From UHGV virus genome UHGV-0268673: a stretch of 18,863 nt of DNA, one strand, 5' to 3'. Below the pieces are notes generated by a model, which saw only the letters and a list, made by a program, of their open reading frames with translations, had not been told where the DNA came from and made no database searches. This DNA is from a virus. Position numbers and translations under genes: made by a program. Of this stretch, positions 2,540 to 15,703 are shown piece by piece (the first letter of the stretch is position 1; each line of letters begins with the position of its first letter).

Positions 2540-5286
2540 TGCCAGTCGTACCAACAGTATCCGGACGCCAGGCGCAAAGTCGTGGTGTGCAAACCGGTGG
2601 TTTTCAGATCTTCGATGTTCCTCAAGCAGGTCAGGTGCTGGCGAATGTCGCAGATCAGTATGCGGTGGCATATGGTGAAGCCAGGCAGAAAGCGAATGTT
2701 GCTATGGCCCAGGAGGCGTTACTGCAATTTAACCAATTTGCAGATGACCAGATTAACAACCCTGAAAGTGGGCTGATTTCTAAACAGGGTAAAAACGCTC
2801 TTGGTCAGAGTGACGCTGTTATGAAAAATATGCAGGAAAGGGCTCAGGCATTATTAGGCTCAATTCCTGAAAGTGAGGAAAGGAATAAATTATCCTTTCA
2901 ACTCCAGCAGTCTATGCAGTCTTATTACAATCAGGCACGTCGATATGAAGTTGGGCAGTTTCAGCAATTCCAAGATCAAACGTATTTGTCAGGAAATGCA
3001 TTGGCTGTCACTCAGTCTGCGGGGCTATATAGCGATAACCAAGCATTTGTCGATTTAGCCAAGCAGCGATTTGAATCTATTGATCAATACGCTGATGCGC
3101 ATGGGCTTCCTGATGAGTGGCGTGTTCAGCAGAAAACTCAGCTCAAGGAACAAATGGGGCAGCAAGCATGGATAGGAAATATCGCTCAAAAATACAACGA
3201 GTTTCTTCAGGTTAATGGAGAGCCAGGGGATCTTGATGGTGTGAGTCGTGCAATATCACATGGTAATTCATTGGATGCTCGTGGTTTACGTAATAATAAC
3301 CCTGGTAATATTGAAGCGAGCAAATCTAACCCGTGGGAAGGTCAGATCGGTAGCGATGGACGTTTTGCAACGTTTGCTACCCCTGAGCATGGAATCCGCG
3401 CGTTGGGTAAAAATATGTTGTCTTACCAGCGTCAAGGCTATGACACCGTTAGCGAGATTGTTAATCGCTATGCTCCGGCTAGTGATGGTAATAATACTGA
3501 TGCTTATATTAGGGCATTGTGTGGTGAGCTTGGTGTTGGGGAGAATGATCAGCTTGATATCTCTAACCCAAAGACACTAGCTGCTTTATGTGCTGGGATT
3601 ATTAAACACGAAAATGGCAGTATGCCTTATAGCACCGAACAGCTTGAAACTGGTATCTCGGCAGCCCTTGGTCTAACTAACCTTGATTCACCTAAGCGTT
3701 ATACGGGCAATGCGGCATTTGATGCTATGAGCCCTCAAATGCAAATACAGGCATTGAGGCAGGCTAATGAGCTGAGAAATCAGTACCGCCAGCAGTATGC
3801 GGACCAGCTTAGCACCGTAGTTAAAGATGCATATTCAGCCCTTGATGAAGGATTGAAACCTGAGAAGTTACCTTCTGAGGACGATTTTATCCGGGCCAAT
3901 GGTCCGCGCATTGGCGCTATGAAGTGGAAGGATATGCAGGCGCAGATACAATATGGAGGTGTCATTGGTGCCGCTAAAGACCTCACTCCAGAAGGACGAC
4001 AAGACATTCTTGAACGTTTACGTCCACAGGATCCAAACGCTCCTGGATTTGCAGCTAACCAGCAACGCTGGGAGAAAATGCAGGCCAAATTTAAAGAGAT
4101 GGATAGGGAGTGGGAGATTCAGCAGGGAAGAAACAGGTTCGTGTCTTCAATGCAAAATAACTTCCCGCTGGACCCGAACGACAAAAACAATCAGGCAGCG
4201 GTAGACCGTTATTTCGCGCAGGATATCGCGCCTTCGTTTTCCATATCTGATCCGCAGAGCATCAATACACTGGTCACCGTCACAACTAAAAGCGGCATGA
4301 TACCAACTCAGATTAAAACAATGCTTAACAGTGGAGCGACATCAAGAGATCCTGCGCTGGTTGTCCCGATGGCAAAATTCTACGGTCAGTTATTCGATAA
4401 TAATCCGGCGGCAGCGGCAACACTTGATAAAAGTACGATGGCATTTTACGGCAAGGTTTACGATTATTCCCGCGCTGGCGTGCCGGAGGATAAGGCTGTT
4501 GATATGGCTTACAGCCAGGTGTTCCAACAGGATGACCGAATGAAACAGATGCTTTCCACTGCCATGCGAGACAAAAAATATGTCGCGGCGAGGGCAACTG
4601 CTGCACAAAATAACGCCAGCAGTCTGACTTCCTTTGGTTCGTGGTCTCCGGATATTACCGATCCAGGAAAATCAAATGCGGCCTATCAGCGAGATTACCA
4701 GACAATTTACGATGCTAACTTTGTACAGACAGGTGGCGATGCAGAACAGGCTGAGAAAATGACCAATGCCATGATCAGAACCACTTGGGGAGTTTCTACG
4801 GTTAATGGCAAAGCAGAGGTTATGAAGTATGCACCTGAGGCATTGTACGGAGTAAATAATGGTGCTGGTAACTGGATTCAGGGGCAGTGGGAGCAGGAAA
4901 AACGCGAGCTTAAATCAAAATCCTTTGGCGGTCCTCGCAGTGATACGGACTTAATACTTGTTTCTGATAGCCTTACGGCAAGGGATAGGAGTTATGCTGT
5001 TATGGTTTTACAGCCTGACGCAAACGGAGCGATAGAACCGAGAAATTATATTGGAGAAAATGGTCTCCCTGTTCGTTTCAAGCCGGATCAGCTGACATCT
5101 CCAATGTACAGGCAAACCATTCAGTTCCAGCAACAGCGTGTTGATGAGGCTAGAGTGAGGAGAGAAGGCAATCCGCTGCCGCAGTTCAGCAATAAAGATG
5201 GATATACTCCTCCAGATCTGACCAAACCATTCGGTTATGGTTCAGCCAATTACCTTCCGAGCAATATATACGCAGGGGGCAAATAA
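2539..5286 (+). CDS. Large internal virion/ejection protein (915 aa from the ATG at 2539)
   Basis: The ORF track gives 2464..5286, but the ATG at 2539 has a strong GGAGG Shine-Dalgarno 6 nt upstream and overlaps the upstream stop (TAATG), so 2539 is the likelier start. Contains a conserved-looking block (…RGLRNNNPGNIEASKSNPWEGQIGSDGRFATFATPEHGIRALG…). Size and position match T7 gp15-like core proteins. Confidence 0.75.
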   Translation: MPVVPTVSGRQAQSRGVQTGGFQIFDVPQAGQVLANVADQYAVAYGEARQKANVAMAQEALLQFNQFADDQINNPESGLISKQGKNALGQSDAVMKNMQERAQALLGSIPESEERNKLSFQLQQSMQSYYNQARRYEVGQFQQFQDQTYLSGNALAVTQSAGLYSDNQAFVDLAKQRFESIDQYADAHGLPDEWRVQQKTQLKEQMGQQAWIGNIAQKYNEFLQVNGEPGDLDGVSRAISHGNSLDARGLRNNNPGNIEASKSNPWEGQIGSDGRFATFATPEHGIRALGKNMLSYQRQGYDTVSEIVNRYAPASDGNNTDAYIRALCGELGVGENDQLDISNPKTLAALCAGIIKHENGSMPYSTEQLETGISAALGLTNLDSPKRYTGNAAFDAMSPQMQIQALRQANELRNQYRQQYADQLSTVVKDAYSALDEGLKPEKLPSEDDFIRANGPRIGAMKWKDMQAQIQYGGVIGAAKDLTPEGRQDILERLRPQDPNAPGFAANQQRWEKMQAKFKEMDREWEIQQGRNRFVSSMQNNFPLDPNDKNNQAAVDRYFAQDIAPSFSISDPQSINTLVTVTTKSGMIPTQIKTMLNSGATSRDPALVVPMAKFYGQLFDNNPAAAATLDKSTMAFYGKVYDYSRAGVPEDKAVDMAYSQVFQQDDRMKQMLSTAMRDKKYVAARATAAQNNASSLTSFGSWSPDITDPGKSNAAYQRDYQTIYDANFVQTGGDAEQAEKMTNAMIRTTWGVSTVNGKAEVMKYAPEALYGVNNGAGNWIQGQWEQEKRELKSKSFGGPRSDTDLILVSDSLTARDRSYAVMVLQPDANGAIEPRNYIGENGLPVRFKPDQLTSPMYRQTIQFQQQRVDEARVRREGNPLPQFSNKDGYTPPDLTKPFGYGSANYLPSNIYAGGK

Positions 5287-8200
5287 TGCCGATATATGAA
5301 CAGGATCCTAAAGAGTTGCTTGGCGAGGATATTCAGCAAATAGCAGCACCTGATGACAGTAATTTCTATATGGAAACACCTTCTTTGCTTTCTGCTGTGA
5401 ACCCATTTACCAGTGATCAACGCGTTCAAAGGTCTAGACAAGCAGCATTTCGTATAGATAACACGCTGGGTAGCTTTATTGCCAGTGCTCCTTTCAGTCA
5501 GTTTGACAGGGTTGAAGGATATAACCCATTTGATAACGATGCAGCAGATATTAAAGGCTATGAAGATTTTGCAGATTCGTTTATCAACTCCGGTTCGCAT
5601 GAAGAAACAATGGCAATTAAACATCGAATCGATAAGCAAAGAACAGATAGAGAATATCTATCTGAAATGGGTGGTGCTGGTACTATTTCAAGCTTAGCAA
5701 TGGGAATGATAGACCCGGTTAATGTGGCTGCAATGTTCATCCCTGTAGGGGCGGTAGCGCGTGGAGGAAGTATTGCTGAGACGGCAGGGCGTTTTGCCCT
5801 GGCGAATGCTGCTGGTGGGGGAGTATCAGAAGCCGCATTACAGGCCACTCAGGAAGCTCGCTCACCGATGGAGAGCGTATCGAACGTTGTTGTTGATGCT
5901 CTCGTTGGTGGGATCCTTGGTGCTGGTGCACAGCTACTTGCTGGACCTAGCGCGCGCGAGGCAGTGGTTAACTCAGTAGGTAATCATTTGCGAGGTATGG
6001 ATTCTCCTCAAAGCATTGGTGCAGCTCAGGTTTTCAATACCACACTCGATCAGGAACAGCTCGCTGGACTTGGACTTGCTAACAAAACGTTGAGTGTCAC
6101 TCCTGCTGGCCGCTTGGCGCAATCACCATCTCTTGTCTCCCGTCAGATTAACCAGCAGCTTGCCGAAAATAACTATTTCTTCGCCAAAAATGATGAGGGG
6201 TTGGCTACGTTTACGGCAGTCGAGACTAAGATTAAGCAATACGACGCCATGCTTTATAAGCAGATGGAAGCCACTCGTGATGCTTACCAGCAGTACAGCA
6301 AATCTGTTAGCGCCCGCGGCGTGAAGAGGATGAACTTTATTGATTTCAATGAAGCTGTTGGCATGGCCATGCGCCGTGGTGATCAGAGTGATATTCCTGA
6401 GGTTTCACAAGCTGCCGCCAGAATCCGCCCCATTTTCGAGACCACAAAAGCCCGTATGCAGGAACTGGGGATCCTTCCTGAGGATATCGATGTCGTGACG
6501 GCGAAAAGTTATCTTCCCCGCATTTATAAGTTCGATAAGATACTTTCCGACCGCACTGAATTCAGAGGGCGAATTGCCAACTGGATACAAGGGATTAGTG
6601 CCAAAGGTGCTGACAAGGCAGGTCAGCGAATTGAAAGGATAAATTCATTGCTAAAAACTGCAGAGGAATCGGCACCGCGCGCTGATGCTCTCGCTAGTGA
6701 AATCGCTGAAGCGGAGAAATGGTCTGGTAAAAAAATTCTACTCATGGAAGAACTGGATAAACGAAATAAGCTTATATCTCAGGAGACTGACACACAGGCG
6801 CGTCTTACAAGAATAGAAAAAGAGTTGGCCGAGACTTCATCAGAAAAACTTCAGGCAAGAATGATGAAAGAAAGCTCTGACCTTAAAACACGCCTTGATG
6901 ATATAGCGCAGGCAAAGAGTGAGCTTCCTATCTATCAGCGCCATATGGAATTGCTGGATAATCCACGGAAATATCGTTCTGAGCTTCGCCGACTGCAAAA
7001 ACGGGCAAATTCAACCACAAGGCTGAATGCAAGCCGCGAACGAGCACTGAAGCAGATGGAGCCTCTATCCCGAGAGGAAGCAGAGGACGCTGCTGACGAG
7101 ATCGTGAATAAAATAATAGGCGCACCTTCCGGGCTTGTACCAGCCGATATTATCCCAGAGAGACTCGTTGGTCGGGCTGGTTTCACTAAAAGCAGAACGC
7201 TGCTTATTCCTGATGAGCGTATAGAAGATTTTCTTGAATCAGATGTTAACTACATCATGGAAAGTTATCTCCGGCAGGTGGCACCAGAAATTGAGCTGAC
7301 TGCGCAGTTTGGCCGTAAAGATATGGGGGAGCAAATCCGTCAGGTTAGTGAGGAATATACCCGGCTAATAAAAGAGGCTAAAACACCTAAACGACGTGCA
7401 GTTCTTGAGAAGCAACGGGAGGCTGATATTAGGGATATTACGGCTATGCGTGATCGACTGCTTGGTACTTACGGTGCACCTCAAGATCCACGCAGTTTCT
7501 TTGTTCGTGCCGGGCGAGTTGCTAGGAATATTAACTTCCTCCGTTTGCTTGGTGGAATGACTGTCTCCGCTGCAACTGATCTGATGCGACCGATGATGCA
7601 GCATGGCCTGAGAAAATCTCTCGGACCAATGGTAAGCATGCTTAAAAATATGGACTCAGTGAAAATTGCAACCAGGGATTTGCGAGAAATGGCCGTTGGG
7701 CTTGATTATGTCCTGTCTACGCGTACAAAGGCTATAGCGGATCTTACTGACCCCTATAGCCGGAGAAGCGCCGCTGAGCGAGGTCTGAACTGGATGACGC
7801 AGAAATTCGGTAACTGGACGCTGATGAATCAGTGGAACAGCGCACTTAAATCATGGTCCGGGATGATAGTGCAGTCGAGGATACTTGACGCGGCTCGCCA
7901 AGTTTCTGCTGGTGGCACGCTCTCCAAAAGTGAAATGCGGAAGATGGCACAGGTCGGCATCAATGAAGATGTTCTGCGCCGAATCGGGGAGCAATTCGGG
8001 AAGCACGGAGAGGATATGGACGGGCTGTTAACCGGGCATAGTCATCTGTGGGATGACCGTTTCGCTAGAGAGATTTTCCAGTCTGCAGTGCTGAAAGATG
8101 TAGACTCAGTGATTGTAACGCCTGGCGTAGGTGATACACCGCTGTTTTTTAGTAAAGAAGGCTGGAAGATGATCACGCAGTTCAAAACGTTTATCTTCGC

Positions 8201-8675
8201 ACAGCATAACAGGGTGCTGGTATCTGGTATCCAGCAGGGCGATGCTGCATTCTATCTTGGTGCGCTTGGCACGATTGCGCTTGGCTCAATGGTCTATATG
8301 ATGAAACAGAAGTTAAGCGGTCGCGATATCGACTACAGCTGGAATAACCTTGTGAAAGAGGGGATCGACCGGGGCGGAATGCTTGGCTGGCTCTCTGAGC
8401 CGCTGAATACCGTTGAGAACATAAGCGGCGGTAGGTTTGGTCTTGGCGCGATGTTTGGTGCGCCTCCGGTATCAAGGTTTCAGAGTCGTAATGCTATTGG
8501 TGCTTTACTTGGTCCTACCTTTGATCTTGGCGGTGATGCCGCGACGGTTGCGAATGGTGTACTTAACGGAGAATTTGACAGCCAGCAAACCCACGCGGTC
8601 CGTAAAATGCTACCTTTTCAGAACCTGTGGGCGATATCACCGTTACTAAATAAAGTTGAAGAGCAGATGAAATAG
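5286..8675 (+). CDS. Very large internal virion/ejection protein (1129 aa) with a central coiled-coil-like segment
   Basis: ATG at 5286 overlaps the upstream TAA. Long uninterrupted ORF with a heptad-like charged region around residues 450-600. Size and position resemble T7 gp16-type proteins. Confidence 0.75.
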   Translation: MPIYEQDPKELLGEDIQQIAAPDDSNFYMETPSLLSAVNPFTSDQRVQRSRQAAFRIDNTLGSFIASAPFSQFDRVEGYNPFDNDAADIKGYEDFADSFINSGSHEETMAIKHRIDKQRTDREYLSEMGGAGTISSLAMGMIDPVNVAAMFIPVGAVARGGSIAETAGRFALANAAGGGVSEAALQATQEARSPMESVSNVVVDALVGGILGAGAQLLAGPSAREAVVNSVGNHLRGMDSPQSIGAAQVFNTTLDQEQLAGLGLANKTLSVTPAGRLAQSPSLVSRQINQQLAENNYFFAKNDEGLATFTAVETKIKQYDAMLYKQMEATRDAYQQYSKSVSARGVKRMNFIDFNEAVGMAMRRGDQSDIPEVSQAAARIRPIFETTKARMQELGILPEDIDVVTAKSYLPRIYKFDKILSDRTEFRGRIANWIQGISAKGADKAGQRIERINSLLKTAEESAPRADALASEIAEAEKWSGKKILLMEELDKRNKLISQETDTQARLTRIEKELAETSSEKLQARMMKESSDLKTRLDDIAQAKSELPIYQRHMELLDNPRKYRSELRRLQKRANSTTRLNASRERALKQMEPLSREEAEDAADEIVNKIIGAPSGLVPADIIPERLVGRAGFTKSRTLLIPDERIEDFLESDVNYIMESYLRQVAPEIELTAQFGRKDMGEQIRQVSEEYTRLIKEAKTPKRRAVLEKQREADIRDITAMRDRLLGTYGAPQDPRSFFVRAGRVARNINFLRLLGGMTVSAATDLMRPMMQHGLRKSLGPMVSMLKNMDSVKIATRDLREMAVGLDYVLSTRTKAIADLTDPYSRRSAAERGLNWMTQKFGNWTLMNQWNSALKSWSGMIVQSRILDAARQVSAGGTLSKSEMRKMAQVGINEDVLRRIGEQFGKHGEDMDGLLTGHSHLWDDRFAREIFQSAVLKDVDSVIVTPGVGDTPLFFSKEGWKMITQFKTFIFAQHNRVLVSGIQQGDAAFYLGALGTIALGSMVYMMKQKLSGRDIDYSWNNLVKEGIDRGGMLGWLSEPLNTVENISGGRFGLGAMFGAPPVSRFQSRNAIGALLGPTFDLGGDAATVANGVLNGEFDSQQTHAVRKMLPFQNLWAISPLLNKVEEQMK

Positions 8676-9116
8676 CTATTCACAATTAGTGATGGCGTAT
8701 GTATCAAATATATTGCCATCACTAAATACATACCTATACTCAATCTCTCCGCCAAGGTGAATAAATGCTTTCATTTGCCTGTTGGCGCAAATGCTCGATT
8801 TTGAATAATTTCGCATTACACTCTTTAATTTATTTTCTAAGGTTACATCACCATTATAAGCTTTTGATAAATAGCTGTTGTTGTAATTAAGATGCGCTAC
8901 AACTAAAAGTTTGTTTAGTATTGCATTTATTGAAACAATAGACATATTATCATTCAATTTTATGGGAAGTGACTTTCCTGCTTCTGATGCGATTTTGTTT
9001 GCATGAGCACACATATCCTCATTTATTAAATTCTTAAAACATATGTCGTTTGCAAACGAAAAAATTGGTAGGATAAACAAAACGGTGGCTGTAATAGCGT
9101 GCATCGGCTTAATCAT
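8676..9116 (-). CDS. Secreted/periplasmic protein with N-terminal signal peptide and four Cys (146 aa), unknown function; AT-rich cargo gene
   Basis: N-terminus MIKPMHAITATVLFILPIFSFA↓ND looks like a Sec signal peptide. Strongly AT-rich codon usage compared with the flanking virion genes. Its stop abuts the stop of the convergent upstream gene (TAGCTA at 8673-8678). Confidence 0.55.
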   Translation of the reverse strand: MIKPMHAITATVLFILPIFSFANDICFKNLINEDMCAHANKIASEAGKSLPIKLNDNMSIVSINAILNKLLVVAHLNYNNSYLSKAYNGDVTLENKLKSVMRNYSKSSICANRQMKAFIHLGGEIEYRYVFSDGNIFDTYAITNCE

Positions 9117-9128
9117 TAGGTGACCTTT

Positions 9129-9578
9129 ATGTTCAAGAAGATGATCAACAGATTAATCGGTGGTAAGGAGGTTAGCAATAAAATTCAACCTCTTATCTTT
9201 AAGGATAACTTTTCAGCTTTTGAGTATGCGTGTAAGTATCTTGACACAAGCCTTTCAGCCAATAAACCAATGCCAGCCATCATCATACCTGGTCCCAGTG
9301 GGGAACAGCCAGTTTTGCTAGATTCTGGAAGACAAAGGGCAATGCTGAAGGTGTGCTCAGCTGATGGTGGATTTTTTGTTATTGCCGATTCATCTTACAG
9401 CAAAGGACCAAAGCTGAGGATTGGTGATCTTGTTGCTTGGTTGCCTGTGAGTTATGCCGAAGAATTAACGGATAAAATAGAAGATCCTCGCTCCGCTATG
9501 GTTGGCTTTATATTGGGAACCATTCATCCTGAACTAACATCTACTGGCTGGAAGGGTAAAGAAAGATTTCGCAAGTAG
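9129..9578 (+). CDS. Hypothetical cytoplasmic protein (149 aa from the ATG at 9129)
   Basis: The ORF track starts it at GTG 9120; the ATG at 9129 has an AGGTGA Shine-Dalgarno 7 nt upstream. Followed by a clear intrinsic terminator. Starts head-to-head about 12 bp from the start of the minus-strand gene. Confidence 0.5.
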   Translation: MFKKMINRLIGGKEVSNKIQPLIFKDNFSAFEYACKYLDTSLSANKPMPAIIIPGPSGEQPVLLDSGRQRAMLKVCSADGGFFVIADSSYSKGPKLRIGDLVAWLPVSYAEELTDKIEDPRSAMVGFILGTIHPELTSTGWKGKERFRK

Positions 9579-9591
9579 CGTGACATGTCAC

Positions 9592-9616
9592 AGGCCGCGA
9601 AAGCGGCCTTGTTTTT
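9592..9616 (+). terminator. Rho-independent terminator for the 9129..9578 gene
   Basis: Stem AGGCCGC / GCGGCCT with GAAA loop, followed by TGTTTTT. Confidence 0.6.
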
Positions 9617-9693
9617 AACGAATGCCACTGCCGCCCGGGCGGGAATCCACAGAACGCCCACCGCAGCGGGAGCCGTCAGCGGCAGTATCGCTG

Positions 9694-10014
9694 TTATACT
9701 ATTGAGTTAAATGATATCTTGTCCTTAATATCATTAAGTTTGCCATGTATCTTTTTTGCATAAGAATCAGCTTCCTCAATAAACTTCGACTTCTCATTAT
9801 CAGGCATATTTTTGAAGGTATGTGCACATGTATATTGAGAGTAGTAATTGTGAAACTTGTTATACAAATTATTGAGTTCTTGTAAGTCTTTTTTATACTC
9901 AGGAAGGTATATGTTTATTAGCATTTCCATCGTTTGCAACGGATTGACTTTTGATGTGTCAAATTTACTACCAGAGTGGTAACTGGCATTGTTAACAAAA
10001 TTGAGAATAGCCAT
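9694..10014 (-). CDS. Hypothetical protein (106 aa), very AT-rich; last gene of the minus-strand cargo cluster
   Basis: Uninterrupted ORF in a roughly 30% GC stretch (judged by eye). Weak ribosome-binding site, so confidence is only moderate. Same orientation and spacing as the upstream membrane-protein genes. Confidence 0.45.
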   Translation of the reverse strand: MAILNFVNNASYHSGSKFDTSKVNPLQTMEMLINIYLPEYKKDLQELNNLYNKFHNYYSQYTCAHTFKNMPDNEKSKFIEEADSYAKKIHGKLNDIKDKISFNSIV

Positions 10015-10079
10015 TTCGCTTGAAGCTATGGCTTTTTCAGTAAGTATGCAATTTGTGAATAATTGCTCACGTTTATCTC

Positions 10080-10196
10080 TTAATATTTTTCGCGCTCTAA
10101 TTTTATGCTGTTTTTGTATCCTTGCCTTGCACTTATGTAAGTAGAAACTATAGCAATAACTGCACCTATCAATGCTCCTAAGATAGTATTATCCAT
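10080..10196 (-). CDS. Small single-pass membrane peptide (38 aa: MDNTILGALIGAVIAIVSTYISARQGYKNSIKLEREKY), absent from the ORF track
   Basis: Hand translation of the minus strand. ATG at 10196 is preceded by AGGTGG with a 5-nt spacer; TAA stop at 10082-10080. Hydrophobic core GALIGAVIAIV. Sits between the 287-aa membrane-protein gene and the 106-aa gene. Confidence 0.45.
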   Translation of the reverse strand: MDNTILGALIGAVIAIVSTYISARQGYKNSIKLEREKY

Positions 10197-10221
10197 ATAA
10201 GCCACCTAAACTGCGTAAAAA

Positions 10222-11085
10222 TTATTTCCTGCCACTTCTGTAGTATATGTTGCGACCATTTTTGGTCACATTAACAACATGACCCTTTGTTTCTACTTTG
10301 TTATTTGTTGCCTTATATACTTCAAAGTCAAACCATGATATATGACTTATTTCGTCTATAGATACCATAATTTCTAGACCTTGAACTTTCTTTTTGCTTA
10401 TCCCTTTTATCGCAGCACTGCGCTTAATTTGGATTTCACCTGGGTAAGCGTTTGTAAATGTAACAGATAAATTTTCTTTGTTTCTGTACCCTGACATTAA
10501 AGGAACAAAAGATATGTGTTGGTGTGGCCCTTGATTTTCCGTTGGCTCACCAGAACCATTTATTATTCCAACGTATACTTTATTTGATGATAAAGTAATT
10601 AACATTGGTTTCTTAGGATCTGATTCGATTGCATCAAGCAATAGCAAATCTAAAGAACCCTGGGAGTACGTTTTTCGCAATACTCTAGCTTTCATTGCCT
10701 CTGATATTTTGTCATAAATATCACGTTTATAAAAAAAACCTAAAAGAAGATCTTTTAGCCAAACAAAAGATACATAACACAAAGAGAAGCAAATTGATGT
10801 GACTGACAGAAGAAGTAGCCACATGTAAATTCTATCTGTTTCTGGTTTTGACGTTACATTAAAAGTTTCCACCATATCGTGAACTAGGTGAAAATCAGGA
10901 TATTTATATTTTATAAATGCGGCAATTATTACTGAAGCAACAAGGCAATATGTACCTAATGCAGCTACTTTCATATAAAGAAGCTGGCCTTCATGTCGGT
11001 ATAAACGGAAATAATGATACTGGTTAGCGGTTATCATAATATAACCACTAACCAGAATGGGGATAATTAGAAGAGCTAACAACAC
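10222..11085 (-). CDS. Inner-membrane protein with three predicted N-terminal TM helices and a roughly 175-aa soluble C-terminal domain (287 aa); candidate exclusion/defence/conversion effector
   Basis: GTG start at 11085 overlaps the TAG of the upstream 69-aa gene (TAGTG) and has an AAGGAAA Shine-Dalgarno. Hydrophobic stretches at about residues 2-20, 38-60 and 86-110. AT-rich. I recognise no family. Confidence 0.7.
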   Translation of the reverse strand: MLLALLIIPILVSGYIMITANQYHYFRLYRHEGQLLYMKVAALGTYCLVASVIIAAFIKYKYPDFHLVHDMVETFNVTSKPETDRIYMWLLLLSVTSICFSLCYVSFVWLKDLLLGFFYKRDIYDKISEAMKARVLRKTYSQGSLDLLLLDAIESDPKKPMLITLSSNKVYVGIINGSGEPTENQGPHQHISFVPLMSGYRNKENLSVTFTNAYPGEIQIKRSAAIKGISKKKVQGLEIMVSIDEISHISWFDFEVYKATNNKVETKGHVVNVTKNGRNIYYRSGRK

Positions 11086-11294
11086 TATTTCCTTACAGTG
11101 GCAAGATCCTGTTTAACGATTGCAGCAGCGAGACGACGCATCTCCTTAACCTCAGGAAGCTCAGAAATTTGCTGTGATGAGATATACACTCCACCACGCT
11201 TGTTAACCTGCGCTGACGCCGGAACTTCTGCATTTTTTGCCTGAGGGCTGGGTGCATTATCCCTCGTTTTTGTACGAGCGAACCAAAATCCCAT
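11085..11294 (-). CDS. Small basic protein (69 aa), possible regulator; first gene of the operon driven by P1/O1
   Basis: Strong GAGGAGGAG Shine-Dalgarno 4 nt upstream of the ATG at 11294. Promoter-like TTGCAG-17 nt-TACTAT sits upstream with the palindromic operator O1 immediately after the -10. Translationally coupled to the 287-aa membrane-protein gene. Confidence 0.6.
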   Translation of the reverse strand: MGFWFARTKTRDNAPSPQAKNAEVPASAQVNKRGGVYISSQQISELPEVKEMRRLAAAIVKQDLATVRK

Positions 11295-11320
11295 ATCTCC
11301 TCCTCATGTAAACACATGGT

Positions 11321-11335
11321 TTACCTTTAAGGTAA
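11321..11335 (-). promoter_or_regulatory. Operator-like palindrome O1 (TTACCT-TTA-AGGTAA) overlapping the -10/+1 region of the promoter for the 69-aa/membrane-protein operon
   Basis: Perfect 6-bp inverted repeat with 3-bp spacer. On the minus strand the order is -35 TTGCAG, 17-nt spacer, -10 TACTAT, operator. One of three copies of the same palindrome in the island. Confidence 0.5.
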
Positions 11336-11406
11336 TAGTACGCTATTCACCCCCAGTCTGCAATCTGTACAGAATTATTTAAAGGCACGTCCCTGTGCCG
11401 CCGCCG

Positions 11407-12102
11407 TCAGAAGAACCCTGCTTTGTCGTTGATGTACTCCGCGTGCGTCTGGATATCACGCAGGCATTTGCTCACACCGACGATGTAGCAGAACATGGTG
11501 GTCAACTCCGCCGCCGCGCCCGATACGTCATGCCCGTCTTCCTGTAACTGGTTCAGCAGATTCATCAGCAGTGAGTTCTCCGTCAGGCCGAGAACACCAG
11601 ACGGAGAATGAATCAGGCTGCGGTAGCCTGGCTTCAGTGGGGCGCTGTAGGTTTTGTTCTCTATCTTCATCGCCTGCATCACTGCTGATGCTGTGGCGTT
11701 TGCAACCTGGTCGGCAACCATCTTTATGCGTTCTTCCTGCGGGAGCGAGTTTTTAATGTAACTTCCGGTGCGGCGGATCTGAGGAAGAACCTCACCTGTA
11801 ACCCATTTACGAAAGCGGTAGGGGATAGTGCCTGGTGTCACTGCGTCGCGGCAGCGGAGGATCAGTGTGTAGAGGCCTGACTCGGAGATGATGATCGATT
11901 CTTGCTCACCGCCAGGGGTGTCGGTTGAAGCGACGCCCTTCTCATCATCATCAAGTTTTCGAACAGCATCTCGATGGTTTGCTATGCCTATAGCCCGACA
12001 AACATCTGAAGCGATAAACCATGGCTCACCATTAATGACGATTACCCGTATATCGGCTTGGGATTCGAAAGAAAAAATGGACGTGCTTTTTGTAGCTGTC
12101 AT
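11407..12102 (-). CDS. Phage anti-repressor-like protein with an N-terminal Bro-N domain (231 aa)
   Basis: N-terminal region IRVIVINGEPWFIASDVCRAIGI…DEKGV…GGEQESIIISESGLYTLILRCRDA…FRKWVTGEVLPQIRRTGSY matches the Bro-N/AntA-type pattern. AAGGTAA Shine-Dalgarno upstream of the ATG at 12102. C-terminal ~65 aa is paralogous to the 85-aa protein at 12418..12675. Confidence 0.8.
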   Translation of the reverse strand: MTATKSTSIFSFESQADIRVIVINGEPWFIASDVCRAIGIANHRDAVRKLDDDEKGVASTDTPGGEQESIIISESGLYTLILRCRDAVTPGTIPYRFRKWVTGEVLPQIRRTGSYIKNSLPQEERIKMVADQVANATASAVMQAMKIENKTYSAPLKPGYRSLIHSPSGVLGLTENSLLMNLLNQLQEDGHDVSGAAAELTTMFCYIVGVSKCLRDIQTHAEYINDKAGFF

Positions 12103-12259
12103 AGTGGTTACCTTTTAGTCTGGTTAATCACCACTACCGACGCCAATCGGTTGGTGGTGAACTGTGCAGGGTTGGCGTAACCGGCTAAAAGGACCCGGCG
12201 CACCTTTCGGTGCCCCCACACAGCCCACCATAATACGAATGTGGCCGTGCTATACGCAT

Positions 12260-12279
12260 AAAAAAACCGCTTGCGCGGT
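12260..12279 (-). terminator. Rho-independent terminator on the minus strand, between the 85-aa gene and the anti-repressor-like gene
   Basis: Minus-strand read: ACCGC-GCAA-GCGGT hairpin (GNRA-like loop) followed by six T (plus-strand A-run 12260-12265). Confidence 0.5.
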
Positions 12280-12371
12280 GAATGCGCCTTTTAGTAATCC
12301 GGGACGCCAATCCCGGCACTGGATTTTGCCAGTGCCCGATTACTATGGCACAAGAGGAGTGCGATGTAAAT

Positions 12372-12386
12372 TTACCTCAAAGGTAA
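12372..12386 (-). promoter_or_regulatory. Operator-like palindrome O2 (TTACCT-CAA-AGGTAA, extended ATTTACCT…AGGTAAAT) with associated promoter-like elements
   Basis: Minus strand shows -35 TTGCAA (plus 12409-12414), 16-17-nt spacer, -10 TTATAT/TATATT, then the operator at the putative +1. Same architecture as P1/O1. Confidence 0.5.
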
Positions 12387-12417
12387 ATATAAGCACTCCA
12401 CTTGGTAATTGCAAACC

Positions 12418-12675
12418 TTATCTGGTTTGTTTTCGTAATTGTTCGGCACAATAGTCGAGATGTGTTTGCAGATCCTGCATAGACATCTGTGAGCTGGTGA
12501 CGTAGTTAATCAGTGCAGTCAGTTCGGCAAGTGGGCCATCGACATTAAATCCATCCTTATCGAGATCCCGGAGTAATTTCATCAAGTGCGATCCCTCCAC
12601 CAGTGACCTGACGCCTCCCGGCGTGTGAATCCTTTCGGTAAATCCGTCTTCCAGTGGATAGTGATACTGCTGCAT
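12418..12675 (-). CDS. Small protein (85 aa from the ATG at 12675) homologous to the C-terminal domain of the adjacent Bro-N anti-repressor-like protein; candidate SOS-inducible anti-repressor-type regulator
   Basis: The ORF track starts at TTG 12693; the ATG at 12675 has a GGAGA Shine-Dalgarno 7 nt upstream. Roughly 40-45% identity by eye over about 64 aa to residues ~165-228 of the 231-aa protein (e.g. LMKLLRDLDKDGFNVDGPLAELTAL vs LMNLLNQLQEDGHDVSGAAAELTTM). LexA box and O3 lie upstream. Confidence 0.65.
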   Translation of the reverse strand: MQQYHYPLEDGFTERIHTPGGVRSLVEGSHLMKLLRDLDKDGFNVDGPLAELTALINYVTSSQMSMQDLQTHLDYCAEQLRKQTR

Positions 12676-12694
12676 CTTATCTTCTCCATGCAAT

Positions 12695-12714
12695 AACTGT
12701 ATATTTATACAGTA
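12695..12714. promoter_or_regulatory. LexA (SOS) box: AACTGTATATTTATACAGTA
   Basis: CTGT-N8-ACAG with an AT-rich spacer, about 18/20 match to the E. coli LexA consensus TACTGTATATATATACAGTA. Lies between the promoter region and the ribosome-binding site of the 85-aa gene and overlaps a TATAAAT -10-like element on the minus strand. Confidence 0.6.
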
Positions 12715-12751
12715 TCAAATAATTTGTTTGCTATCCAGCACGTTTTGCAAA

Positions 12752-12766
12752 TTACCTGAAAGGTAA
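12752..12766. promoter_or_regulatory. Operator-like palindrome O3 (TTACCT-GAA-AGGTAA, extended ATTACCT…AGGTAAT), flanked by the self-complementary TTGCAA hexamer
   Basis: Third copy of the palindrome, in the divergent intergenic region between the 85-aa gene (minus) and the tailspike gene (plus). Could serve a promoter in either direction. An extra AGGTAAT half-site lies at 12811-12817. Confidence 0.5.
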
Positions 12767-12870
12767 TATCTATTCGTATTTACAGCCTTTCTATCCATAT
12801 GTGGTTTTTCAGGTAATAAAATAACCAGATATGCGGCGCAACGGGTGCTGCGACTATCTGGAGATTTAAC

Positions 12871-15447
12871 ATGACGGTCTCAACCGAAGTTGACCACAAC
12901 GAATACACTGGTAACGGCGTTACGACATCATTTCCGTATACCTTCCGTATTTTCAAAAAATCCGACCTGGTTGTTCAGGTGTCTGACCTTAACGGTAACG
13001 TAACAGAACTAGTACTGGATACCGGTTATACGGTAACTGGGGCGGGCACTTATAGTGGCGGTTCTGTTGTTCTTCCGTCGCCGCTTGCTGCTGGATGGCG
13101 AATTACGATAGATCGTGTGCTTGATGTAGTGCAGGAGACAGACCTTCGCAATCAGGGAAAATTTTTCCCCGAAGTGCATGAAGATGCCTTTGACTACCTG
13201 ACGATGCTGATCCAGCAATGTTTTGGGTGGTTCAGACGTGCATTGATGAAACCATCTTTGCTTGCAAAATATTACGATGCAAAGCAAAACAGAATTTCTA
13301 ACCTTGCAGATCCATCATTTGAGCAGGACGCTGTAAATAATCGCTCAATGCGTAATTATGTTGATGCTGCAATCGCCGGGGTTGTTGGTGGTTTTGGTTG
13401 GTTTATTCAGTATGGTTCTGGAGCAGTATACCGAACGTTCCAGGATAAGATGAGAGATATCGTCAGTGTTAGCGATTTTGGTGCAAAGGGAGATGGAATA
13501 ACTGATTCTACGGAGGCGTTCTCTAATGCAGGCCACAGAGCGTTTGTTCCTAATGGCGATTTTGCAGTAAATACTCTCGAAGTTGATGTATCTTCTGTTC
13601 AAGGTATTGGGAGGATTGTTGCTGATAATGGATCTCTTATTTCAGTTTCTCGTCTACTTGAAACTGACAAACTTGTGCAGAGAAAAATGATGGAACCTTT
13701 TTTTGGTTTTCAGGGAGAAACAAACACAGAAATTTATCCTAATGCCAGAAATGCGTTACAGGGGATCGCATATTGCCGTGTTAATGGCATTGAAAAACTA
13801 TTTGTCACACAACGGCCTGTTGGGCCAACCTGGTCAGATAAAGAAAGAGTTCGTATTGTTGAGTTTAATCTTTATGATGATGGAAGGGTAGTAAACCATG
13901 TTGCGTATTCTCCAGAATTAAACCTTGGGCACGGATTTGATCTTTCTGCCATGGTGGAGAATGGTCAAGTATATTTATATACATCAAGTGTAACCAATTC
14001 AGGTGAAGATGGGGAGTCTGCAGGCAAAGGGTTTAGTAAAATAACTTGGCGAGGGGCAGGAACAACTCAGTCTGACGTAAAAAGTTATAATGTATGGGGG
14101 ATTACTGGTAGCGGTCACCCATTTCAAGATTACAATCGTGCAGGAATTGCCATTTCTTCTGACGGTCGTCTTTTAATAATGGTTAATACACCAAAGAGTG
14201 ATGCCGCTAAACGAACTGTATTTATATACGATAAAATATCAATTGATAAACTTGAAGATAAAACATTAGCAAACCCCATGTTTGTTTGGGAAATGAGCGA
14301 CTCACCTTCTGAAGGCGCTTACTCTGTACAAGGTATTGCGTCTGATGGAAGATATATACATATACTTAAGGGAGGGACTAACGCTTTTGGAAAGCATCAT
14401 ATCTTTACATATGATTTAACAGGTAATTTACTAAGAAAATTAGATATCGATGATGCAAGGTCGCAATATGGGCGCGATGGGTTGCTTAACCATCCAACTC
14501 TTGGGAATCCAGCCAGATTTGAGCCGGAAGGTCTAACTATTCGTGGTGAAGAAATAATTATAAGCTGCATAGAAACATGGAGGGCAGGAGCTAATATTGT
14601 AAACTGGCGTGGAAGAAGATGGGCTGCATCATCCATTGAGACTTCTGGAATAATTGGTGTCCCTCCATCAAATGGCTCTTATTGGGTAGAAACAACCAAG
14701 GATGCAAATTCTGGAGATTGGAGTCCTGAAACAGATTATGGATGGGGAAGTAGCTATTCTCTTGAGAAAAAGACAATTTACTCTATACGACCAGCGACTG
14801 GTAACAACGATGAGCAGAACCTTAATTCTGGCATAACCAATGCTTCAAGTAATGCAGGTGCAGATGCCGGAGAAAGCGGGCGAAATATATCATTTAGATG
14901 GCGCAATGCTTTTAATATTGTTGCATTTAGCGAACGTCTTGGTGAGTACTTCAAAGCTATTATGTATGATAATAGCTCAAGATTAAGAATATACGATCAG
15001 CAAAACGGTAGTGATAACACTGTTTATGGCTCAATCCAGGCACTATTTACGTCATCATTTAAGGGATTGATTTTAAGGGGTAGGGGGGTATCAGCATCAA
15101 ATAGTTCCTATATTAGGTTACATTCATCTGATGATCCAAACTACCCAAATTCGATCATTGAAGGAACAAGAACAGATGGAAGTTTTTCCAGGGAAACAGA
15201 TTCAAACGGAACCACTACATTTGCATCGGACTCAGAGCACGAACCGTTGCGTATCAGAAGGGCTTCAGATGGTTTGTTGTTTGCATACGAGAAAGTAAGA
15301 GGTACAACTCTCTTTGGAATTTATAGAGGCTCCGGTTCACCTGAGGGTGTTGTGACCGCACCTCAGGGGTCAATGTACATTGATTATAATGGTGATTGGT
15401 ATCAAAAGAAAACAGGAACAGGAAATACAGGATGGGTGTTAAAATAG
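12871..15447 (+). CDS. Tailspike/tail fibre protein (858 aa) with T7 gp17-like N-terminal virion-attachment domain and a large C-terminal receptor-binding/enzymatic region
   Basis: GGAG Shine-Dalgarno 7 nt upstream. The N-terminal ~120 aa (…YTGNGVTTSFPYTFRIFKKSDLVVQV…ITIDRVLDVVQETDLRNQGKFFPEVHEDAFDYLTMLIQQ) follows the conserved pattern of the T7 tail-fibre N-terminal domain. Long Gly/Ser/Thr/Asn-rich remainder is typical of tailspikes. Confidence 0.85.
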   Translation: MTVSTEVDHNEYTGNGVTTSFPYTFRIFKKSDLVVQVSDLNGNVTELVLDTGYTVTGAGTYSGGSVVLPSPLAAGWRITIDRVLDVVQETDLRNQGKFFPEVHEDAFDYLTMLIQQCFGWFRRALMKPSLLAKYYDAKQNRISNLADPSFEQDAVNNRSMRNYVDAAIAGVVGGFGWFIQYGSGAVYRTFQDKMRDIVSVSDFGAKGDGITDSTEAFSNAGHRAFVPNGDFAVNTLEVDVSSVQGIGRIVADNGSLISVSRLLETDKLVQRKMMEPFFGFQGETNTEIYPNARNALQGIAYCRVNGIEKLFVTQRPVGPTWSDKERVRIVEFNLYDDGRVVNHVAYSPELNLGHGFDLSAMVENGQVYLYTSSVTNSGEDGESAGKGFSKITWRGAGTTQSDVKSYNVWGITGSGHPFQDYNRAGIAISSDGRLLIMVNTPKSDAAKRTVFIYDKISIDKLEDKTLANPMFVWEMSDSPSEGAYSVQGIASDGRYIHILKGGTNAFGKHHIFTYDLTGNLLRKLDIDDARSQYGRDGLLNHPTLGNPARFEPEGLTIRGEEIIISCIETWRAGANIVNWRGRRWAASSIETSGIIGVPPSNGSYWVETTKDANSGDWSPETDYGWGSSYSLEKKTIYSIRPATGNNDEQNLNSGITNASSNAGADAGESGRNISFRWRNAFNIVAFSERLGEYFKAIMYDNSSRLRIYDQQNGSDNTVYGSIQALFTSSFKGLILRGRGVSASNSSYIRLHSSDDPNYPNSIIEGTRTDGSFSRETDSNGTTTFASDSEHEPLRIRRASDGLLFAYEKVRGTTLFGIYRGSGSPEGVVTAPQGSMYIDYNGDWYQKKTGTGNTGWVLK

Positions 15448-15526
15448 ACTATTCTATTTTAATTTTTCCCATTAATTAATGATGGGAATCCCAAAAATTG
15501 ATAATACATCATCTATTTATAACTCA

Positions 15527-15552
15527 GCCACCTCATAGTGAGGTGGTCTTTT
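15527..15552 (+). terminator. Rho-independent terminator downstream of the tailspike gene (a second weaker hairpin follows at about 15569-15589)
   Basis: Stem CCACCTCA / TGAGGTGG with TAG loop followed by TCTTTT. Second hairpin CCACC-TTG-GGTGG followed by GCTTTT. Confidence 0.6.
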
Positions 15553-15703
15553 ACTGTTATCCCTAAATCACCACCTTGGGTGGGCTTTTACCAATACCAA
15601 TGACAGTATTTTTGCTGTAAGAAAGTAACAATAAACCATAAATGGTTTATTATGCTTTGTGACTTACCATTTAGGATGTTGATGCATATAAACGGTGGAA
15701 AAC

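Follow-up and report, generated by a model that had tools for sequence, protein, structure and literature searches.

In phage SPC32H, the Ant tetramer binds two dimers of the phage repressor Rep and breaks the Rep tetramer (PMC9638917), and antirepressors controlled by LexA have been reviewed with citation of the SPC32H study (PMC7380047). In Gifsy-1, translation of an antirepressor-like gene lying downstream is under the control of the IsrK RNA (PMC4825925), and overexpression of ORF4 of phage ZX5 reduces lysogeny ~1000-fold, taking prophage titres from 10^9 to 10^6, and promotes the lytic cycle (PMC9782041). The window analyzed here is a stretch of 18,863 nucleotides (nt) of the virus genome UHGV-0268673. 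Its positions 8676-12870, between the end of the structural operon and the tailspike gene, are likely the immI-equivalent antirepressor region of a phiV10/epsilon15-like prophage into which two independent AT-rich cargo cassettes (V1 and V2) have recombined. The region is ordinary phage mosaicism, a largely characterized antirepressor locus plus two cassettes, and its uncharacterized part is a module of V2 genes for proteins of 69 and 287 amino acids (aa), here called 69/287.

Megablast identifies the window as prophage DNA of an Escherichia coli podovirus of the phiV10/epsilon15-like type (genus Uetakevirus), with EC.W1-9, TL-2011b, phiV10, HEMP4 and phiv142-3 as the top matches. The calls of open reading frames (ORFs) bear out the flanks and gene layout given in the original prediction. 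Tightly coupled plus-strand genes for tail and internal-virion proteins stop at 8675, exactly where the 99.3% identity with EC.W1-9 ends, and the 858-aa tailspike gene starts at 12871. The prediction put seven or more genes between them, mostly on the minus strand; there are seven ORFs, six of them on that strand, plus one gene remnant and two RNA genes. The ORF products are, in order, 146 aa (minus), 149 aa (plus), 167 aa (minus, split), 287 aa (minus), 69 aa (minus), the 231-aa Bro-N protein (minus) and the 85-aa Ant (minus).

The ant gene closely matches the SPC32H antirepressor gene. Residues 3-85 of Ant align with residues 8-90 of PDB 5D50 chain E ("Anti-repressor protein") with E = 5.4e-47 over 83 residues and few substitutions. 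In SPC32H, ant is annotated at the matching place and in the matching orientation, divergent from the tailspike gene, and has a LexA box at the identical 21-nt spacing. The box ahead of the window ant is the only perfect LexA box in the window, against 0.21 expected by chance. By analogy with SPC32H, ant would be held off by host LexA, and DNA damage would lead to Ant synthesis and the disassembly of Rep. The two loci differ in that ant is the sole gene in the SPC32H slot, whereas a second antirepressor unit and two cargo cassettes are added here.

The second antirepressor is a fusion of a Bro-N domain and a C-terminal Ant domain. The protein is 100% identical to ZX5 ORF4, and its C-terminal domain matches 5D50 chain E (E = 1e-13) and shares 42% identity with the short Ant of the window. 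The 315-nt spacer upstream of its gene (12103-12417) folds with z = -8.3 and contains matches to the Rfam models of the C4 antisense RNA and IsrK. Upstream of C4, at 12287-12294 and 12305-12310, lie exact complements of its loop motifs, CCUUUUAG and CGCCAA. Downstream, the motifs are again complemented exactly by a2 (CUAAAAGG, 12118-12111), which includes the Bro-N/Ant Shine-Dalgarno sequence, and b2 (UUGGCG, 12146-12141). CCTTTTAG occurs just twice in the window and CTAAAAGG once, and the complementary a/b motifs are unique to the region. Given the complementarity between its loops and sites over the Bro-N/Ant ribosome-binding site, C4 should block translation of the gene, as it does in immI of phage P1. 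The proposed unit would start at an operator-overlapped promoter and produce the IsrK-like RNA, the C4 antisense RNA and the fusion antirepressor.

This organization resembles P1/P7 immI and the isrK-orf45-anrP locus of Gifsy-1 in that the C4 and IsrK models score above their gathering thresholds and duplicated a/b motifs flank C4. As in P1/P7 immI, a2 lies over the ribosome-binding site and the regulated gene downstream is an antirepressor. The gene regulated is what differs, being a Bro-N/Ant-domain fusion here in contrast to Ant1/2 of P1 and AnrP of Gifsy-1, and the phage is an epsilon15-type podovirus. C4 and IsrK both occur at the corresponding place in phiV10, TL-2011b and EC.W1-9. A 37-aa ORF (12108-12221, minus strand) that overlaps C4 stops 5 nt short of the Bro-N ATG and might serve as a coupling leader in the manner of icd in P1 or orf45 in Gifsy-1; in ZX5 it is labeled 'ash family protein'.

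A 15-bp palindrome, TTACCT-N3-AGGTAA, recurs at both antirepressor units and at V2. The window has three exact copies, all within 8676-12870, against 0.06 expected for copies with up to one mismatch. O1 and O2 are placed alike, each following a -35 element (TTGCAG or TTGCAA), a 17-nt spacer and a -10 element (TACTAT or TATATT), with the palindrome beginning at the last -10 base. O3 has equivalents at 20877 in phiV10 and at 20013 in SPC32H. With up to two mismatches allowed, the count is 15 in phiV10 against 0.9 expected and 18 in SPC32H against 0.8 expected. The rep/cro intergenic region contains two of the phiV10 copies and three of the SPC32H copies, and most others are at the starts of transcription units. 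This distribution suggests that the palindrome is probably the operator of Rep. V2 lies between a predicted backbone promoter with a palindrome-overlapped -10 element and a shared terminator. With Rep bound at the palindrome, V2 would be repressed in the lysogen and switched on by induction or infection.

BLAST against the relatives places the predicted promoter, candidate operator and terminator of V2 outside the cassette, in shared backbone DNA; the promoter lies in the part common to TL-2011b and SJ2D. The original prediction had also credited the segment with promoters, operators and terminators of its own. The LexA box, the palindromes and the terminator-like hairpins (11 versus 3.6 expected) do exceed chance, but promoter-like sites with at least 9 of 12 consensus matches are not enriched overall (13 versus 10.7 expected). 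The palindromes of phiV10 and SPC32H are nearly all intergenic, lying between rep and cro and ahead of the structural, tailspike, lysis, integrase and replication-downstream units. Their genome-wide spread resembles that of the 'stoperators' of mycobacteriophages.

Module boundaries were drawn from BLAST comparison with six relatives, and frequencies were counted among 5,426 complete E. coli genomes (Table 1). The window and phiV10 have 11397-13305 in common, and the backbone shared with TL-2011b and SJ2D starts at 11316-11319 and runs rightwards. The ant backbone (12418-12870) was counted in 531 genomes, with 95-100% identity, V2 in 30 and V1 in 14. V2 is full length in 8 of its genomes; the other 22 carry the 69+287 pair alone and lack the 167-aa gene. 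The V2 site holds DUF4760 in SJ2D, a 59-aa gene with a YafO-like toxin gene in TL-2011b, DUF2335 with a 108-aa gene in EC.W1-9 and ZX5, and nothing in phiV10. The extra V3 DNA of TL-2011b and EC.W1-9 is inserted between window positions 12394/12433 and 12418. The slot measures ~0.5 kb in SPC32H, where ant alone is the minimal state, ~1.6 kb in phiV10 and ~5.9 kb in TL-2011b, and V1 and V2 occur together in just one of the E. coli genomes. The hotspot of variable content that had been predicted at this position is therefore real.

The joint between V1 and V2 contains a strong bidirectional terminator and the remnant of a 53-aa gene, and has a GC content of 63%. The 53-aa gene is intact in SJ2D and TL-2011b and is annotated as a partial pseudogene at the matching site in L004 and L005. 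The right breakpoint of V2 (11316-11319) and the V3 breakpoint (12394) are a few bases from palindromes. Because the breakpoints lie near the terminator and the palindromes, cargo appears to have been swapped between conserved regulatory joints. Compared with two close relatives, the terminator has identical arms and an inverted 4-nt loop (TTTC here versus GAAA there, on the minus strand). All genes from ant through this terminator are co-directional on the minus strand, and no terminator is predicted to separate the isrK promoter from the end of ant at 12418. On SOS induction, transcription from the ant promoter could conceivably run on into the second antirepressor unit and V2.

P22 carries its immI/sieA region in the same place, between the ejection genes and the tailspike gene, and there too the slot is both an antirepressor locus and a hotspot. 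The analogy with immI, drawn in the original prediction from position, gains substance from the relatives. TL-2011b has a P22-like Arc-sar RNA-Ant module (9989-11173) at the V1 position, its sar matching RF00262 at 44.8 bits against a threshold of 43, and a Klebsiella relative has Arc, Arc and a P22-type Ant in the slot. The window differs from P22 in that ORF scans find no Arc/Mnt, RHH, P22_AR_N Ant or sieA in it, and an Rfam search finds no sar. The final ~250 nt of the TL-2011b ant align in inverted orientation, at 95% identity, with the 3' end of the window Bro-N/Ant gene, which indicates that Ant C-terminal domains are shuffled among N-terminal modules.

Table 1. Features of positions 8676-12870 and their flanks, in window coordinates.
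Feature	Position	Strand	Basis and remarks
1129-aa DUF919-type large virion protein (left flank)	5286-8675	+	ORF; last gene of structural operon
V1	8676-9575		variable; of six relatives, in OZ039848 and SJ2D only
146-aa secreted protein	8676-9116	-	signal peptide, four conserved Cys, predicted AspS/PA3611 pilotin-like fold; stop abuts virion gene stop
149-aa cytoplasmic ORFan (phrog_9944)	9129-9578	+	start 12 nt from divergent 146-aa start
Joint	9576-9694		conserved; at least partly in 5 of 6 relatives (EC.W1-9, TL-2011b, phiV10, FDAARGOS_1257, SJ2D)
Bidirectional intrinsic terminator, GGCCGC-loop-GCGGCC	9592-9609	.	terminator scan; strong, inside joint
C-terminal remnant of 53-aa 'transmembrane anchored protein' gene	9615-9689	-	relatives' annotation; cut by V2
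V2	9695-11318		variable; in OZ039848 and FDAARGOS_1257
167-aa gene (phrog_36918), pseudogene	9694-10196	-	N-terminal transmembrane helix; 1-bp deletion near 10092
287-aa inner-membrane protein	10222-11085	-	three predicted transmembrane helices; predicted C-terminal Sm/Hfq-like beta-barrel
69-aa soluble partner (phrog_5739)	11085-11294	-	stop overlaps 287-aa start (TAGTG)
Backbone	11319-12394		in relatives having V2-site cargo; phiV10 shares from 11397
Palindrome O1, TTACCTTTAAGGTAA	11321-11335	.	overlaps final -10 base of cargo promoter; V2 right breakpoint 2-5 nt away
Predicted sigma-70 promoter of cargo operon	11335-11363	-	read from sequence; TTGCAG (11363-11358), 17-nt spacer, TACTAT (11340-11335)
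231-aa antirepressor, Bro-N + C-terminal Ant domain	11407-12102	-	backbone; Pfam Bro-N 76.7 bits
C4 target sites a2 (12111-12118) and b2 (12141-12146)	12111-12146	-	exact complements of C4 loop motifs
C4 antisense RNA	12150-12235	-	Rfam RF01695, 77.7 bits (gathering 45), full length, model positions 1-87
IsrK-like RNA	12260-12335	-	RF01394, 77.9 bits (gathering 50)
IsrK terminator	12266-12279 plus U-run	-	terminator scan
a1/b1 target region	12296-12348	-	overlaps IsrK-like RNA; RF03163, 45.1 bits (gathering 46.7)
Palindrome O2	12372-12386		overlaps -10 of RNA/Bro-N promoter
Predicted promoter of RNA/Bro-N unit	12386-12414	-	promoter scan; TTGCAA (12414-12409), 17-nt spacer, TATATT (12391-12386)
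V3 insertion point	about 12395-12417		empty here; TL-2011b and EC.W1-9 hold ~0.9-1 kb extra
Backbone	12418 onwards		all relatives
ant, 85-aa SPC32H-type antirepressor	12418-12675	-	backbone; homology, position
LexA box, CTGTATATTTATACAG	12697-12712	.	sole perfect match in window; 21 nt upstream of ant ATG
Palindrome O3, TTACCTGAAAGGTAA	12752-12766	.	ant/tailspike divergent intergenic region
858-aa tailspike (right flank)	12871-15447	+	ORF, comparison with relatives; N-terminal part conserved, C-terminal part mosaic

The 69-aa and 287-aa genes of V2 overlap at TAGTG and are thus translationally coupled. By profile search, the 287-aa family has 2,768 cluster representatives, and a homolog of the 69-aa gene is directly upstream and co-oriented in 49 of 64 loci, with a single match per locus. 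These loci are found in Gamma-, Beta- and Alphaproteobacteria and in Flavobacterium, a range from Proteobacteria to Bacteroidota. Their neighborhoods vary, with integrase domains the most frequent neighbors. In Citrobacter and Pectobacterium the pair is at the integrase end of a prophage, and in Providencia it occupies the corresponding slot of an epsilon15-like prophage. The structure predicted for the 287-aa protein ends in a five-stranded bent beta-barrel following an alpha-helix, as in Sm/Hfq/WYL-like folds, and this domain would face the cytoplasm. A BFVD fold search with this model returned TM-scores of at most 0.33 and is uninformative. The window copy has no Pfam or PADLOC match, and 62 diverse members of the family likewise lack Pfam matches and give just two spurious single PADLOC matches. 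There is no PDB sequence match to the 146-, 149- or 287-aa proteins, and full-text searches turned up no paper that names the cargo proteins by RefSeq accession. 69/287 is a mobile two-gene module whose behavior fits conflict systems. The pair may be a membrane-acting accessory module of the exclusion, abortive-infection or toxin-antitoxin-like kind.

The third V2 gene is a pseudogene. Two ORF fragments of the 167-aa gene match one PHROG, and the deletion falls at column 139 relative to intact copies. E. coli A0 34/86 carries a 100% identical V2 with the same frameshift, so the lesion is inherited and is not a sequencing error in the window. V1 and V2 resemble phage morons and other cargo hotspots in being AT-rich and present or absent among close relatives, and V2 also in lying between a promoter and a terminator. 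V2 differs from morons in that its predicted promoter and operator belong to the backbone and look repressor-controlled, which would imply expression outside lysogeny.

A broader proposal for 69/287 is put forward tentatively. The pair would be a widespread unnamed system in which a three-helix membrane effector with an Sm/WYL-like sensor is controlled by the small partner and serves conflicts among phages or between phage and host, by exclusion, abortive infection or addiction. In that case, the slot flanked by operators downstream of the antirepressors would be a dedicated site of effector exchange in Uetakevirus prophages.

It is rather doubtful that the V2 pair, and possibly V1, is an anti-phage defense or superinfection exclusion system active in the lysogen, comparable to sieA/sieB of P22-like phages or the P2/P4 hotspots, with the membrane protein as effector and its Sm-like domain as sensor. 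The cassette is AT-rich and sits in a swap-in slot where relatives hold a YafO-like toxin pair or small membrane proteins. Its distribution is wide and patchy, often by integrases at prophage ends and once near SieB, and its membrane protein has a ligand- or nucleic acid-binding fold that is also present in WYL defense regulators. However, no member has a PADLOC or Pfam match, defense genes are not enriched among the neighbors, and the promoter overlapped by the candidate Rep operator predicts repression in the lysogen, making classical prophage defense less likely. The alternative cargo of the relatives likewise gives no match in PADLOC-DB 2.0.

That 69/287 is a toxin-antitoxin-like addiction module, stabilizing only itself and playing no part in phage biology, is improbable. 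The genes are small and translationally coupled with the smaller first, and they overlap and are kept as a pair, as is typical of type II toxin-antitoxin loci. The module is also mobile and patchily distributed, and it occupies the same site as the YafO-type toxin pair of TL-2011b. Against this, the small partner has no detectable antitoxin-type DNA-binding domain, the 287-aa protein matches no toxin family, and no autoregulatory operator of the module's own was identified. Across 34 small partners, no RHH, AbrB/SpoVT or HTH Pfam family was found at E<=1. Assignment of the 69-aa protein as an AbrB/SpoVT-type antitoxin was considered and is unsupported by these homologs in Pfam or by PDB sequences.

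V1 carries a predicted periplasmic protein beside an ORFan. The signal peptide of the 146-aa protein ends in ...PIFSFA/NDIC without a lipobox, and its four cysteines are invariant. Its predicted structure has the fold of the pilotins AspS and PA3611, at 14-16% sequence identity. A pilotin of the type II secretion system would have a lipobox, and secretin or secretion-system genes would be expected nearby; neither is present, and the neighbors are virion and antirepressor genes. The 146-aa gene further differs from AspS/PA3611 in being convergent to a phage virion gene. Homologs occur in Klebsiella (74% identity), Cedecea and Providencia (37%), and in all four genera the gene is convergent to a ~1000-1130-aa DUF919-type virion gene. 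This constant arrangement means that the 146-aa gene is positionally linked to the virion gene and is not free cargo. The window virion gene scores 24.2 bits with Pfam DUF919 (cut-off 21), its relatives are annotated as DUF919 family proteins, and its product is a probable ejection protein. It is speculation that the 146-aa protein acts in the periplasm with ejection proteins or secretin-type partners.

The 149-aa ORFan has just 13 relatives, all in Enterobacterales, and no domain was found in it. Its gene lies beside the 146-aa gene in Cedecea and is absent in Klebsiella and Providencia. The divergent starts of the two genes are 12 nt apart (9116-9129), so the promoter of either one has to sit within the other; no promoter was identified.

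The AT-rich blocks named in the original prediction are a real compositional break. The GC content is 32.7% at 8676-9116, 30.8-34.0% in the ORFs within 9694-11085, 37.4% across V1 (8676-9575) and 35.3% across V2 (9695-11318), against 48.5% in the left flank and 45.0% in the right flank. GC at third codon positions (GC3) drops to 0.27-0.36 in the 287-, 146- and 167-aa ORFs, so the AT-richness is synonymous too. Both measures separate cargo from backbone, but codon-usage likelihood against the structural operon gives no separation.

It is highly improbable that all of 8676-12870 is one acquired accessory island of exclusion or regulatory cargo, as originally predicted. Slot length does vary greatly among relatives, parts of the segment are AT-rich, and the full combination occurs in just one E. 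coli genome. Yet 11319-12417 has a normal GC content (51.6%), the ant part and the DNA shared with phiV10 recur as set out above, and V1 and V2 are distributed separately with a conserved joint between them. The proposed cassette between conserved flanks thus holds for V1 and V2 and fails for 11319-12870, which is conserved backbone, the outcome that the original prediction had itself named as speaking against acquired cargo. The backbone also contains characterized elements (ant with its 5D50 chain E match, the ZX5 ORF4 homolog, C4 and IsrK), and the description of the content as uncharacterized fits only the function of the ~2.5 kb of V1/V2 cargo. There is next to no chance that the AT-rich ORFs are non-functional, their low GC reflecting decaying filler or the amino acid bias of membrane proteins, for despite one frameshifted pseudogene, one truncated remnant and the non-discriminating codon-usage likelihood, the 287-, 69- and 146-aa proteins keep 37-55% identity across genera with synteny and invariant residues, the 146-aa and (with moderate confidence) 287-aa models fold, and a GC3 of 0.27-0.32 is a bias beyond amino acid content.

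An immI-equivalent antirepressor region with two recombined cassettes remains the preferred reading, and several points weigh against parts of it. The window has no rep gene, the immunity region being outside it, and the pairing of the prophage's Rep with these Ant proteins is presumptive. No literature statement on binding of Rep to TTACCT-N3-AGGTAA was found in a search that did not extend to the SPC32H primary papers. The cargo promoter is a by-eye consensus match below the threshold of the promoter scan. The a1/b1 Rfam match is 1.6 bits under the gathering threshold, and the 37-aa ORF overlapping C4 is unsupported as an icd/orf45-like leader, with no Pfam or NCBIfam match. The 287-aa model is moderately confident (pLDDT 72), and its Sm-like likeness is one of fold alone. 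The V1 and V2 proteins match no known defense, toxin or antitoxin family in Pfam, NCBIfam or PADLOC, and the predicted repression of V2 in the lysogen counts here as well as against a defense role.

The mosaicism continues beyond the slot. The C-terminal two-thirds of the tailspike (13492-15464) form a separate mosaic block with 98% identity to phages Gally and 683R2, which match the window nowhere else. The tailspike gene itself has a low GC content (41.5%) and GC3 (0.30). It is followed by a ~250-bp AT-rich gap (15447-15695, ~34% GC) where phiV10, TL-2011b, SPC32H and others carry an O-antigen acetyltransferase gene, and this second cargo slot appears to be empty in this prophage.

The analysis maps a double antirepressor switch with one arm under predicted LexA control and the other under predicted control by C4 RNA, together with delimited sites at which cargo is exchanged. 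Such a map can help to annotate this prophage type, found in ~10% of complete E. coli genomes (531 of 5,426), where most entries for ant, the two RNAs (C4 and IsrK) and the operators read "hypothetical" or are missing. It also provides leads: a candidate genome-wide Rep operator that coincides with recombination breakpoints, a mobile two-gene membrane module, and a periplasmic protein of predicted pilotin fold that is genetically tied to a probable phage ejection protein. None of these leads overturns current ideas of phage mosaicism.

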